DNA of 64,000 nucleotides from Candidatus Babeliales bacterium (lineage in GTDB: Bacteria; Babelota; Babeliae; Babelales; JACPOV01), in NCBI GenBank assembly GCA_050250855.1, contig JBFWNW010000003.1, forward strand, positions 1-64,000, given 5' to 3'. A model generated the notes under the pieces. It was not told where the DNA came from, made no database searches, and was given only the letters and a program-made list of their open reading frames with translations. Position 1 is the first letter of the stretch, and the number at the start of each line of letters is the position of its first letter. The position numbers and the translations under genes were made by a program. Shown here in pieces: positions 4,392 to 7,442 of this stretch.

Positions 4392-6143
4392 TTATTTCAC
4401 CTTTTGCAACTGCTGCTCCAAATTCATCAATTGTTGAGTGAGCGCATTCAGCTCACTGCTTAATTGCTGCGTACCAGAACCCTGTTGTGGTTGTTGCACT
4501 GGAATAGTTACTGATTTGCCTGCAAAAATATCATTGAGCGTATTAGTGGCTGATGTAAGAGTTTGATCAACTTGGCTCGAATACATTTTTTGCAAATAGG
4601 TACCTAACACATTAGCTTGTGATAACCGTTGCGCAATGTTTGTTCCATTAATTTGATCTGCTACTTGTGCCATGCGTTCCAGAAATTTTTTATCCTCATT
4701 TACATTTCTATAAGAACCTTGTTTACCTGGCTCTGGGCGATAGATCAAGCGAACATCTAAGCCGTAATCCCTAACAGTATTAATAAATTCTGATGTTTCC
4801 ATCGCTTCCGCTAACCAAGCCATTTCATTAGCAAAGGCACTTGCACCCATCAAGGTCAAATACACAACTTTTTTTCCTTGCTGTGCGGCAGCTTTGACCG
4901 TTCCTTCATAGACCGCCTTTTGTACAATCTTTGCAAACTCTTTTTGTCCTTGAGATCTTTGTTGTTCTGTTACACCGCGTAAATTATACGCAGAACAAAA
5001 AACCAGTGTAACGAGTTGCTGCCCTATAGGAATTTTTTGCAAAAGTTGATCTTTATTCGGTTTTGTTGCAGCATTTTCTTGTGGCGCCAGCCAGCCCAAA
5101 GAAACAGGAATATCAGCATGAATAAAAATGCCAACAGAACCAACTGCATTGGGACTAAAGGTGCGCTGTTTAAATTGTTGCCAATCAATCTGAGGGCCAT
5201 GGCCTCCCCATTTATAGCTAATGCCACCATCAAAATCTTTGAGCAAATAATAGTTCGGCCGCATAAAATATTTGCGGTATATTGTTGCCCCTGCTGTGGC
5301 CATAGAAATTATTTCACCTTGTGCAGCTGCGGGAAACATTTCTTCAAGTTTAGTTTTTGCTGCATACATACCACCTTCAAGCGGTCCCCAAAAAGTTGAT
5401 GCTACTTGAAACACTGCATGCTGGTTGGCAGGATTTGAAACTAAATAGCGCACGTCAGTATCTTCTGGTTTATTCAAATCTCTAAAAATAACAGAAAATT
5501 TTCCGCCACCTGGTTTTTGCCACTGAGAACTCTGCTTGCGCAACTGATCTACTGTTTGATATACAAATTGCCCCATGACAAGTGCTTGGCGACGTGGATA
5601 TTCATTAAACCAGTTTTGATTATAGAAATTAAGATTATTAAGAGCGCCAGGATTATTAGAATCTTGCCGTGTTTCATGCCAACCATATGTAGTTCTAAAT
5701 ATATCTTCGGACATGCCTACAATATCATTAAAAAAGTCACCTGCTTTTACATACCATGTTAGTTGTCCACGAACTGTATTCCATGTAGCAGGAAAAAGAT
5801 TTGCTACGCTATTGGTAATAGCAGTTTTTTGTTGAGGAATTTCATCGGCTTTAAACCAAAGGACCTCTTGGACTTTTCCTTTTACAAAATCTTTTTTAAG
5901 ATTTCCAGAACTGACATAATTTACCGGTACAAAATCAAAATTACCAGCATTTATACGACTTCCTTGTTCTTGCAAGCCACCTTGCAGGCTTAAAGGATCT
6001 TTCCATAAATTATTTACCTTGACCAGCAATACTCGTAAAGCTCCTTGGTCATCTCTGGTCACGGGTAAAATGCGTTTTTGCGGTGCAGCGCCCTGTGCGC
6101 AAGAAACTGCACAAAGCAGTACGAGTAATAATTTTTTATACAT
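4392..6143 (-). CDS. Secreted protein with an uncharacterised, probably macrodomain-like domain (FQVAS family)
   Basis: Signal peptide; AVFQVASTF, QG...GATIYRKYF, VFCSA, VYLTLMGASAFAN motifs; C-terminal heptad helix. Confidence 0.6.
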   Translation of the reverse strand: MYKKLLLVLLCAVSCAQGAAPQKRILPVTRDDQGALRVLLVKVNNLWKDPLSLQGGLQEQGSRINAGNFDFVPVNYVSSGNLKKDFVKGKVQEVLWFKADEIPQQKTAITNSVANLFPATWNTVRGQLTWYVKAGDFFNDIVGMSEDIFRTTYGWHETRQDSNNPGALNNLNFYNQNWFNEYPRRQALVMGQFVYQTVDQLRKQSSQWQKPGGGKFSVIFRDLNKPEDTDVRYLVSNPANQHAVFQVASTFWGPLEGGMYAAKTKLEEMFPAAAQGEIISMATAGATIYRKYFMRPNYYLLKDFDGGISYKWGGHGPQIDWQQFKQRTFSPNAVGSVGIFIHADIPVSLGWLAPQENAATKPNKDQLLQKIPIGQQLVTLVFCSAYNLRGVTEQQRSQGQKEFAKIVQKAVYEGTVKAAAQQGKKVVYLTLMGASAFANEMAWLAEAMETSEFINTVRDYGLDVRLIYRPEPGKQGSYRNVNEDKKFLERMAQVADQINGTNIAQRLSQANVLGTYLQKMYSSQVDQTLTSATNTLNDIFAGKSVTIPVQQPQQGSGTQQLSSELNALTQQLMNLEQQLQKVK

Positions 6144-6152
6144 ACATTCCCT

Positions 6153-7442
6153 TTATTGGAATAGTTTCAATGCGTTTTCTAAATTATCTAATTCAGTATT
6201 TAACATTCGAAGCTCTTGTAATAACGTATCTGCTTGCGATGGCCCTGTAGGCTTACTTGGCATTGCGGTTGTTATTGTACCTGTGTATGGATACGCAGAA
6301 CCTTGAGGAATTTTGCCCATACGTTCAGCGCGCACGTGCATGAGTAAACGACCTAAAATATTTTCTCCCTTATAATCAGCGCCAGCACCATAGAAAGCGT
6401 CATTCTTGCCCGCATCCTCAACAAGAATATTGGGCCATGTTCCTACCAGAAGTTTTGCAAGGTCAGTATTTGGAGCAAACTTTGCTCTGAGTGCGGTAAG
6501 CATAACGGGAATACTTATAGATTTCCAATCTGGTCGGACTAATTTTGGGTTATTTCTGAAATAATCAAAAGCCTCTCGGGGAGTTTTGAAGGAAGCAATT
6601 GTCTTTTGAATTTTTTCATCAGTAGTCTTTTGTGCTTGATAATAATGCTCCGTTGTTGGCCAACTAATTACTGGTGAATTTTTTCCAAAAGGAGGTAGCT
6701 GGATGTTAAATGTAGAATCATAATTAATGCCACCAGCAACGGGCCAGAAGTTAGTAAATTCATAGTAATTATTTTGACCTACAGCTTTAAGAGGTGTTTG
6801 TGCGTCATAAAAATAAATGGTATTGGAATAACCTGGCCCCCATACCGTCAACGGCGTAGCTCCTATAAGGACGCTATCCTGCATAGCTGGTTGTTGTTGG
6901 CTTTGTTGTTGGTACAGCGCAGGAGTAATAATCAACTGGTTAACACCAGGGCTTGTTTTGAGCTGATGTAAAAGATTTTGGTCTATAGCATTTATTATTT
7001 CTTTTGTTTGATCTTTCTTGGTCTTGGTAAAGGTACCGTTAAGATACAGCTCTCGTACAGAAGCCCAAGCAGCGTTTTGAATATATCTAGGAATTACCGT
7101 TATATTTTGAGGCACAAGATTTATCTTTTCTAAAGCTTGATACACTTCATATCCCCTCACAAAAGGCAAAACTCTGTTTAAGGTAATTGAAGCATCAGGA
7201 GCTATCTGAATGGAATTCATCTTTGCCTGATGGAGTATATTATAGAAAGTTGTAAATAGTTTAGTATGATCAAGAGCTCCAACAACTATTGCATCTGGCG
7301 TTGTCCATTGGCCTTGTTTTTCAACCAATAAAATCTTATCTTCACCTTGATCATTACCAATAATAAAGGTTAATCCTGGTTGCATTGCAGCTGCGCGCAT
7401 AAGGGCAGGCGCCAGCAAGAAAAAAAGTAATAACTTTTTCAT
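6153..7442 (-). CDS. Secreted NADAR (YbiA/DUF1768) domain protein
   Basis: Signal peptide; FTNFW, WPTTEHYYQAQK, ALRAKF, LVED..NDAFYG, GENILGRLLMHVR. Confidence 0.88.
   Translation of the reverse strand: MKKLLLFFLLAPALMRAAAMQPGLTFIIGNDQGEDKILLVEKQGQWTTPDAIVVGALDHTKLFTTFYNILHQAKMNSIQIAPDASITLNRVLPFVRGYEVYQALEKINLVPQNITVIPRYIQNAAWASVRELYLNGTFTKTKKDQTKEIINAIDQNLLHQLKTSPGVNQLIITPALYQQQSQQQPAMQDSVLIGATPLTVWGPGYSNTIYFYDAQTPLKAVGQNNYYEFTNFWPVAGGINYDSTFNIQLPPFGKNSPVISWPTTEHYYQAQKTTDEKIQKTIASFKTPREAFDYFRNNPKLVRPDWKSISIPVMLTALRAKFAPNTDLAKLLVGTWPNILVEDAGKNDAFYGAGADYKGENILGRLLMHVRAERMGKIPQGSAYPYTGTITTAMPSKPTGPSQADTLLQELRMLNTELDNLENALKLFQ

Follow-up and report, generated by a model that had tools for sequence, protein, structure and literature searches.

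A tandem gene pair with one architecture and two catalytic modules

We analyzed two adjacent genes, here called ORF A and ORF B (ORF, open reading frame), in a 64,000-nucleotide stretch of contig JBFWNW010000003.1 from a Candidatus Babeliales bacterium (assembly GCA_050250855.1). This whole stretch is referred to as the window. A first-pass annotation of the DNA had described two ORFs 9 bp apart that encode secreted proteins, each with a signal peptide, a similar N-terminal segment, a different catalytic module, a Q/P-rich linker and a common C-terminal heptad helix. We found this layout again (Table 1). The linkers are visible in the translations, and the catalytic modules do differ: ORF A (P0001) carries a NADAR domain and ORF B (P0002) carries a macro fold that resembles poly(ADP-ribose) glycohydrolase (PARG).

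The ATG of ORF A is preceded by AAGGAA at 6 nt. With a Shine-Dalgarno-like stretch in the 9 bp between the genes, ORF A and ORF B are probably on a single transcript.

Table 1. Features of the gene pair (positions in the window)
Feature	Position	Strand	Description
ORF A (P0001)	6153..7442	-	429 aa: signal peptide, degenerate Nudix domain, NADAR, tether, terminal helix
ORF A signal-peptide-like segment	7386..7442	-	aa 1-19, MKK / LLLFFLLAPALM / RAAA; heuristic
ORF A N-domain	6909..7385	-	aa 20-178, Nudix-like fold without Nudix-box glutamates
ORF A NADAR domain	6303..6827	-	aa 206-380 (Pfam 224-373), YbiA family by sequence and model, with E265, K272, E342
ORF A C-terminal Leu-heptad helix	6156..6236	-	aa 403-429 (modeled 403-428), after P/S/T-rich tether aa 381-402
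9-bp spacer	6144..6152	-	reads AGGGAATGT; AGGGA Shine-Dalgarno-like stretch directly before ORF B ATG
ORF B (P0002)	4392..6143	-	583 aa: signal peptide, N-domain, PARG-like macrodomain, tether, terminal helix
ORF B signal-peptide-like segment	6090..6143	-	aa 1-18; heuristic
ORF B N-domain	5757..6089	-	aa 19-129, homologous to N-domains of ORF A and P0004; pLDDT < 50
ORF B PARG-like macrodomain core	4524..5756	-	aa 130-540; motifs FQVAST, LEGG, QGE, LTLMGASAFAN
ORF B C-terminal Leu-heptad helix	4395..4475	-	aa 557-583 (modeled 557-582), after Q/P-rich tether aa 541-556

ORF A contains a NADAR domain of the YbiA type

The NADAR assignment made in the first-pass annotation was supported by sequence and by predicted structure. 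Pfam NADAR (PF08719) matched ORF A residues 224-373 (E 3.7e-25; 89.5 bits, cut-off 35.1), NCBIfam TIGR02464 matched with 87.2 bits (cut-off 73.7), and the closest solved relative by sequence was Escherichia coli YbiA (E 1.4e-22). An AlphaFold2 model built from 23 relatives (mean predicted local distance difference test, pLDDT, 72) matched YbiA (2b3w) with a Foldseek E of 3.9e-10 and a VIA Z of 15.9 (154 residues aligned, root-mean-square deviation (rmsd) 3.5). The same model matched the ADP-ribose-bound NADAR of Phytophthora nicotianae (8bau) with a Z of 14.3.

The residues expected of an active site are present. Across 23 aligned sequences E265 never varies, and K272 and E342 (the latter within LVED) hardly do; these sites align to EHYFQAQK and LVEH of YbiA. 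NADARs are described as having a catalytic, widely conserved Glu and Lys seven residues apart (E88 and K95 of the E. coli C7 NADAR), and a last-strand residue that differs between groups: Glu marks the YbiA family, the DarT1-linked NADARs have Asp and the phage NADARs have His (PMC11543638, PMC11125620). The spacing of E265 and K272 is that of E88 and K95. Judged from sequence and model, ORF A is a YbiA-family NADAR with predicted activity. Every NADAR or YbiA protein whose testing is reported in PMC11125620 and PMC11833690 removes guanosine-ADP-ribose from DNA and RNA.

ORF A shares the Pfam family, the fold, the Glu/Lys pair and the last-strand Glu with E. coli YbiA and the P. nicotianae NADAR. 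However, the known members of the YbiA family, as presented in PMC11125620, are bare stand-alone domains, and ORF A adds a signal peptide, a degenerate Nudix domain and a tethered helix. It also resembles the NADAR of the DarT1-NADAR system (DarTG1), as a hydrolase that would reverse base ADP-ribosylation, but it differs in having the YbiA-type Glu (E342) instead of the Asp of the BC4488 subfamily, in bearing a signal peptide, and in having a predicted hydrolase, not a transferase, as its partner. The first-pass annotation had seen no cognate DarT nearby. We found no DarT (PF14487) adjoining the pair, and the same was true of the whole genome at E <= 0.1.

ORF B has the predicted fold of a bacterial-type PARG

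The first-pass annotation had proposed that both proteins process ADP-ribose and had not named the catalytic module of ORF B. That proposal is strengthened by the structure predicted for ORF B. The model had an overall pLDDT of 79, with most of the core (130-540) above 90, and bacterial-type PARGs were its first Foldseek matches (Thermomonospora curvata PARG 3sih, E 7.8e-7). With VIA, Deinococcus radiodurans PARG 5zdb gave a Z of 17.3 (rmsd 3.6, 242/253 residues); eight PARG entries had Z values of 17.3-16.5 and the apo form 5zda 15.5, covering 235-247 residues, compared with 12.1 or less for generic macrodomains. A structure search of the Atlas with ORF B reached PF10021-bearing clusters at template modeling (TM) scores of 0.51-0.53 and unnamed clusters, one of them half giant-virus, at up to TM 0.70. 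The Macro domain profile PF01661 did not match ORF B, and a PDB sequence search with ORF B gave chance antibody matches alone (E >= 0.15).

We found 101 homologs of ORF B at E <= 1e-3. Eighteen are long (E <= 1e-37), comprising 17 proteins of 457-708 aa and P0004 with 879 aa; the remaining 83 are short (320-519 aa, most of them ~335 aa). Two relatives bear the source name Candidatus Dependentiae. One of the two is in the cluster of P0013, and N-terminal residues of P0013 recur in an ORF of G028, a genome from the phylum set of the window, which makes Dependentiae the probable phylum. The conserved motifs are FQVAST, LEGG, QGE, SSAY and LTLMGASAFAN. In the long set (ORF B together with the 18 long homologs; n = 19), E256, G257 and the QGE triplet are each kept in 19/19 sequences, L255 and G258 in 18/19, and QGEE in 14/19. 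Where the long set has QGE, the short family has QGP in all 83 members. Two canonical PARGs from the same phylum (L033, L034) read PGGGFLGGAAAQEES and YGCGAFNN.

Compared with bacterial-type PARGs (3sih, 5zdb), ORF B has a near whole-enzyme fold match, a G-rich loop followed by Q-x-E, and a GxxAFxN diphosphate-type loop. It differs from them in having no sequence-level match to the PARG families (PF10021, TIGR02452), an altered loop spacing, a larger core (~410 aa) with insertions, and additional export and tether modules. PARG-type macrodomains are, in the account of PMC11833690, the only ones to remove the 2'-OH RNA ADP-ribosylation made by RhsP2, a linkage identical to the internal one of poly(ADP-ribose), and they also act on 5'-phosphate ADP-ribose.

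The top matches of ORF B in a viral fold library were proteins of protist giant viruses (E 9.3e-15 to 1e-8), including Bodo saltans virus (E 9.3e-15), Yasminevirus (E 1.3e-13) and Klosneuvirus; some are named microbial-type PARG. These viruses multiply inside eukaryotic cells. Viral ADP-ribose-removing domains have been proposed to counter host ADP-ribosylation, and the co-occurrence of the families in DNA viruses has been noted (PMC9503650). In contrast to the uncharacterized giant-virus proteins and the RNA-virus macrodomains, the PARG-like protein described here is bacterial, predicted to be Sec-dependent and paired with a NADAR.

Legionella also offers a comparison. Its MavL and DUF4804 effectors are macrodomain hydrolases that this intracellular bacterium delivers into amoebae by type IV secretion. 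No Pfam match to MavL or DUF4804 was found on ORF B, and no VirB4 was found in the genome. An Atlas feature score of 0.83 for MavL and MavL-like clusters with ORF B is a lead only.

Two observations concern the relatives. The short ones (L074-L153; ~335 aa) are 50-60% identical across many bacterial phyla, occur at no fewer than 531 loci (>=531) and have no Pfam model. They have no conserved partner, since the commonest neighbor cluster occurs in just 6/80 of their loci, which come from many phyla. Among the other relatives, P0006, P0008-P0011 and P0018 have a different common C-terminal module (..PKGK.Y.Y......YVDSH....WD..) in place of the helix.

The common N-terminal domain resembles a Nudix domain without its catalytic box

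The two N-terminal segments had been called similar, and reminiscent of a Nudix fold lacking the Nudix box; both points stood up. BLASTP aligned ORF A 2-130 with ORF B 3-125 (27% identity, E 2e-6, signal peptides included), and a profile of the N-domain retrieves both. We searched 261 genomes of the phylum with a three-sequence profile of the N-domain and obtained four further weak matches, all in NADAR ORFs just upstream of the NADAR domain. The consensus of a 23-protein alignment is RAVPMAFD..W.vLL....W.DF...A..AL..QT...FV.V.f..G..LY...DDF.WVP.

Evidence for the Nudix relationship came from three comparisons. Beyond two NADAR entries, 48/48 fold matches of the ORF A model in VIA were Nudix folds, with middling Z values (7.7-5.3) over residues 16-176. 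With hhalign, the N-domain aligned to 14 canonical Nudix domains over 97 columns (E 4.6e-4). In this alignment A..AL..QT lies on the Nudix-box helix A.REL.EET; ORF A reads GALDHT there, and the RE..EE glutamates are lost. A profile search of 1.84 billion representatives found 226 proteins at E <= 1e-3, of which 107 were at E <= 1e-10; the N-domain of ORF B scored E 4.8e-7. Among the best 127 of the 226, Pfam NUDIX was above its cut-off in seven proteins, in six of them on the matched stretch itself. The same 127 included 57 proteins with NADAR, four with a RING finger, one with ankyrin and HEPN, one with Macro and NUDIX, and 58 without a family (E <= 0.001). Because the fold matches, the hhalign alignment and the profile search agree, the N-domain is best described, from sequence and model, as a degenerate Nudix module that stands mostly ahead of NADAR.

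Pfam NUDIX (PF00293) had a direct match in 0/23 N-domain proteins, a word-based homolog search with ORF A 20-200 returned the query itself alone, and phmmer searches of the genome's ORFs with single N-domains gave no further paralogs.

Non-catalytic Nudix-like domains are known. TIRR (NUDT16L1) is catalytically inactive, and NrtR is an ADP-ribose binder according to the title of its PDB entry. Both are among the fold matches and have in common with the N-domain a Nudix fold without a working box, but in sequence they are related to it only at the level of the superfamily.

The degenerate Nudix N-domain also occurs in other settings. In P0153, P0179, P0189 and P0228 it lies ahead of RING-finger (E3-ligase-like) domains, and in P0168 it lies behind ankyrin repeats and a HEPN domain.

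A tethered Leu-heptad helix recurs in predicted secreted proteins

We found that the common C-terminal helix is not confined to the pair. The motif L..L[NT]..L..L[EK]..L occurs in ORF A, ORF B, P0003 and P0004, and ends 15-16 residues before the C-terminus. Models place a helix there in both proteins. The core could be aligned free of gaps, first in ten tails that come from at least seven genomes and later in a set of 17 sequences.

The first-pass annotation had proposed searching the proteome for the helix and asking if it is enriched in secreted proteins. A profile from the ten tails, only two of which are from this genome, was run on this genome's ORFs. The ten best other matches were individually weak (i-E 0.011-0.93), but 9/10 had signal-peptide-like N-termini, compared with a base rate of 572/1192 (binomial p 0.008). 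In eight of the best matches the helix was at residues 20-45, at the C-terminus, or 38 residues before it, and a P/Q-rich stretch adjoins. Pfam searches with 12 helix-bearing proteins identified ankyrin repeats, a leucine-rich repeat (LRR) protein, a USP-type deubiquitinase (UCH, E 8.6e-44) and a metallophosphoesterase, as well as one probable false positive (PNPOx) and one weak sub-threshold match (PMBR, L068). Six of the 12 had no Pfam match, four of these in a tandem cluster at C2:213-217 kb.

Across the phylum, a 17-row helix profile matched 20/261 genomes at E <= 0.01 (5/9 in family f1). This genome had 12 matches, ten of which were query rows, and other genomes had three or fewer each. 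At 18 loci of other genomes we found 13 ORFs with a helix match. The helix was just behind the signal peptide in six of these, at the very C-terminus in two, 15 residues from the end in one, at the N-terminus of a protein without a signal peptide in one, and internal in three. The reversed-database control of the profile was uninformative because the motif is nearly palindromic. From their recurrence and positions, the sequence matches argue for a real, recurrent module that favors the free ends of mature secreted proteins. The module is concentrated in some lineages and is not phylum-wide. A complex prediction of the two tails (ORF A 385-429 and ORF B 540-583; score 0.06, mark 0.34) was evidence neither way.

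Some of the helix-bearing genes deserve separate mention. The tandem cluster (G000:C2:213224-216837, L062-L065) consists of four genes of 232-373 aa that form two paralog pairs, each gene encoding a signal peptide, a Leu-heptad helix, a P-rich tether and a domain without a Pfam match. The deubiquitinase (G000:C4:56292-57569, L070) is signal-bearing and has the helix 38 residues from its end; in the ortholog of a sister species (G103:C13, L177) the helix is at the very C-terminus. Two further profile matches (E 0.002-0.004; G000:C2:105080-105139 and 106849-106908) lie in open frames of only 52 aa.

Both proteins have signal-peptide-like N-termini

Signal peptides were scored with a hydropathy heuristic (the best 10-aa Kyte-Doolittle mean), not with a dedicated predictor. 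By this heuristic, the signal peptides claimed for both ORFs were recovered. ORF A begins MKKLLLFFLLAPALMRAAA, with a predicted cut before MQ (RAAA before M), and ORF B begins MYKKLLLVLLCAVSCAQG, with a predicted cut before AA (AQG before A). In both N-termini a basic n-region precedes a hydrophobic core 11-12 residues long, and small residues occupy the -3 and -1 positions; the h-region scores were 2.66 for ORF A and 3.09 for ORF B. ORF B could also be read as a lipoprotein (AVSC). By the lipobox rule we set this aside, because the residue at -3 is Ala and an AQG-A signal peptidase I site follows.

Signal-peptide-like N-termini were found in 16/23 proteins of the NADAR architecture and 15/19 of the long ORF B set, compared with 0/83 in the short, non-Dependentiae family. 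In Chromulinavorax, a cultured member of the Dependentiae, PMC6561590 gives Sec as the likely export route and describes many signal-bearing ankyrin proteins and budding vesicles. The genome analyzed here has two large secretin genes (G000:C2:124339-129486), with open frames of 883 and 855 aa, ~4 kb apart.

NADAR and ORF B-like genes are linked in other genomes

We found that the association of the two catalytic modules is recurrent. ORF B-like genes are present in 49/261 genomes of the phylum, as is NADAR, also in 49/261. Both are present in 18 genomes where ~9 would be expected (Fisher p 7e-4); the genomes include related ones, which are not independent observations. In P0004 the N-domain, NADAR and the ORF B core are fused, and G120 has NADAR and an ORF B-like domain in one 798-aa frame with the helix motif between them. 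The distance between the two genes is ~1 kb in G121 and ~6 kb in G206.

A related arrangement was found in G129 (L034, G129:C24, 946-3315). There, a canonical PF10021 PARG (416 aa) is directly downstream of a NADAR (367 aa). Both are signal-bearing, and they have a different common C-tail, a hydrophobic stretch followed by PARLTV..QTT (47% identity over 55 aa, E 2e-10).

Surroundings of the pair and content of the genome

The neighbors of the pair, from the ORF list and Pfam, are a YmdB-like phosphoesterase, RNase Y and an alpha/beta hydrolase. The hydrolase (2919-3956, plus strand) is signal-bearing (Peptidase_S9, E 9e-7), has a very acidic C-tail, DDEEDYELELVDDE, and is convergent with ORF B. 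Between these convergent genes, at 4179-4219, is an 18-pair hairpin followed by a T-run, possibly a two-way terminator. It was the sole notable feature in promoter and terminator scans of 3800-7800, which gave fewer sites than shuffled sequence. Positions 2-595 (plus strand) cover the 3' end of a gene for a eukaryote-like repeat protein, whose WD40 repeats stand in tandem and are near-identical (WSPDGTKLASAADDNTIKIWDAQTGTELQTLTGHSNSVHSVV, twice) and which ends in a hydrophobic tail.

The genome is 1.22 Mb in 11 contigs and is 95% complete. In it we did not find the ADPrib_exo_Tox family. PARP was also not found in the genome, a weak negative as the control matched 0/14 genomes. RibA and RibH were not found, with controls that matched in 10 and 14 of 14 genomes, respectively.

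A candidate pair of exported ADP-ribose erasers

We suggest that the pair is an exported, complementary set of ADP-ribose-erasing enzymes aimed at a protist host, an interpretation to which we give an even chance of being correct. The two genes would form one unit in a host-dependent, probably Dependentiae (TM6), bacterium, and would encode two Sec-exported ADP-ribosyl hydrolases with complementary chemistry. ORF A would act on base-linked (N-glycosidic) ADP-ribose, such as guanine-ADP-ribose on DNA or RNA, as do tested members of the superfamily. ORF B would act on ribose-ribose, 2'-OH and phosphate-linked ADP-ribose, including poly(ADP-ribose), as do tested members of its type. Given the specificities in the literature for NADARs and PARG-type enzymes, the two would cover complementary linkages. 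The non-catalytic Nudix-like N-domain may bind ADP-ribose or a nucleotide and so help to locate substrates, and the tethered helix may co-localize or assemble secreted proteins that are directed at eukaryotes. Export would be by Sec and then probably by secretin-type machinery or vesicles. The pair would then erase ADP-ribosylation that the protist host uses in signaling or defense, much as viral macrodomains and the giant-virus PARG-like proteins may do. The host is proposed as the target because the exported frame, the lack of a detected transferase of the bacterium's own, the other helix-bearing proteins and the giant-virus look-alikes all point the same way. The first-pass annotation had suggested an exported kit against ADP-ribosylation by host or phage. 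We favor the host, because the helix is also on USP deubiquitinase, ankyrin and LRR proteins and because the viral fold matches are from protist giant viruses; a phage-directed role is accordingly less favored.

Several results weigh against this interpretation, some of them concerning ORF B. It had no Pfam or NCBIfam match at E <= 1, and PF10021 matched 0/18 of the ORF B relatives scanned and nothing in this genome (G000). Its loop is LEGG-X16-QGE, compared with GGG-X7-QEE in the canonical PARGs L033 and L034; E277 is a putative counterpart of the catalytic Glu. An hhalign comparison of the ORF B family with these two PARGs was weak (probability 2.9%, E 0.016) and covered the SSAY...GASAFAN C-terminal part only. 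With a fold match to PARGs, no profile match and a weak hhalign result, ORF B is PARG-like by predicted fold, is not a PF10021 member by sequence, and has predicted activity. Likewise, the Nudix-like domain is without its catalytic box, and binding of ADP-ribose or a nucleotide is something that we propose for it. Export to the host is a further difficulty. By the heuristic, 572/1192 gene-like ORFs of this genome (48%) are signal-peptide-like, and 44% of coding sequences have signal peptides in Chromulinavorax according to PMC6561590. Since about half of the organism's proteins look signal-bearing, a signal peptide is near the default and by itself is a weak sign of an effector or of delivery to a host. 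VirB4 (type IV secretion) and TolC-type OEP were not found in the genome, in a search that did not extend to type III secretion; the crossing of the outer membrane is a putative step. The pairing is also not universal. In G103, from the same genus, the ORF B homolog P0003 (46% identity) is without the N-domain, and that genome has no NADAR. P0003 is near the same RNase Y-YmdB genes, with other genes intervening. The site therefore looks like a variable island, in which the pairing is recurrent and not obligatory. Finally, a sequencing-run search with the locus returned no RNA run and seven DNA runs from four studies, two of them possibly the source, and is silent on expression and habitat.

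Other explanations account for parts of these results. The pair might serve periplasmic or surface salvage, degrading host-derived poly- or mono-ADP-ribose conjugates, or NAD-derived compounds, for import. This would suit a genome of 1.22 Mb and a group that, according to PMC6561590, lacks complete metabolic pathways and exports many hydrolases via Sec, and a signal peptide alone leads to the periplasm only, in a genome where VirB4 and TolC were not found. However, the helix is also on deubiquitinase, ankyrin and LRR proteins, whose targets are only inside a eukaryotic cell, the Nudix-like domain that would perform the step from ADP-ribose to importable AMP is without the Nudix-box glutamates, and the closest viral structural matches are from intracellular giant viruses; we consider salvage unlikely. 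Somewhat less probable still is that the substrates are different or that catalysis is lacking, with ORF A a small-molecule N-glycosidase, ORF B a binding-only protein, or both, so that the pair senses or sequesters ADP-ribose-type ligands. TIGR02464, which ORF A matches well above its cut-off, is named for a riboflavin-intermediate N-glycosidase, and the ORF B loop has QGE instead of QEE and a longer spacing, with QGP throughout the short family. A role in riboflavin damage is unlikely because RibA and RibH were not found, and all NADAR and YbiA proteins tested, as reported in PMC11125620, hydrolyzed guanosine-ADP-ribose. In ORF B, E277, E256 and the G-rich loop are strictly conserved throughout the long set (n = 19), which suggests that an active site is under selection.

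The explanation that we find least probable is self-protection, in which the pair would repair nucleic acids or proteins of the bacterium itself once ADP-ribosylating toxins had modified them, whether these came from competitors, phages or the host. NADARs and bacterial PARGs are described as protecting cells from ADP-ribosyltransferase toxins (PMC11125620, PMC11833690); the proposed precedents are a bacterial PARG against RhsP2 and a NADAR against DarT1, and together the two activities would cover base-linked and ribose- or phosphate-linked adducts. But such repair needs the cytoplasm, and signal-peptide-like segments stand at the start of both proteins and of most relatives within the phylum. 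In addition, no PARP, DarT or ADPrib_exo_Tox partner was found in the genome, and ORF A has the YbiA-type Glu and not the DarT1-linked Asp.

The helix allows a broader suggestion, which is speculative. On its P/Q-rich tether it could serve the effector secretome of the Dependentiae as an address or assembly tag of a kind not described so far, which gathers eukaryote-directed enzymes and adaptors (deubiquitinase, ankyrin, LRR, phosphoesterase, NADAR and PARG-like macro proteins) on a common coiled-coil scaffold, export route or vesicle. If that doubtful idea were right, the helix would always be at a free end of the mature protein, either right behind the signal peptide or at the C-terminus, and the NADAR/PARG pair would be one matched cargo set. 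It is conceivable, at a similarly low level of confidence, that the G129 pair with its different common tail follows the same principle.

NADAR, PARG-type macrodomains and Nudix domains are already known. What is new is the Sec-exported tandem or fused arrangement of NADAR and a PARG-like protein in an intracellular bacterial phylum, a degenerate Nudix adaptor family with ~226 representatives, a PARG-like family without a Pfam model, and a tethered terminal helix common to other eukaryote-directed proteins. In the literature searched we came across no earlier account of the helix module or of NADAR/PARG pairs that are exported.

ADP-ribosylation is a major currency of defense and signaling in eukaryotic cells, and RNA viruses are thought to counter it with macrodomains. 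If active, the exported pair that we propose would be a bacterial counterpart to the viral macrodomains. It would also give a first context to a large PARG-like family without a Pfam model, with at least 531 loci for the short form, and would provide testable candidates for ADP-ribose marks that protists place on invaders. The recurring terminal helix is a handle on the effector set of a phylum of which few members are in culture and for which no dedicated effector secretion system is known.

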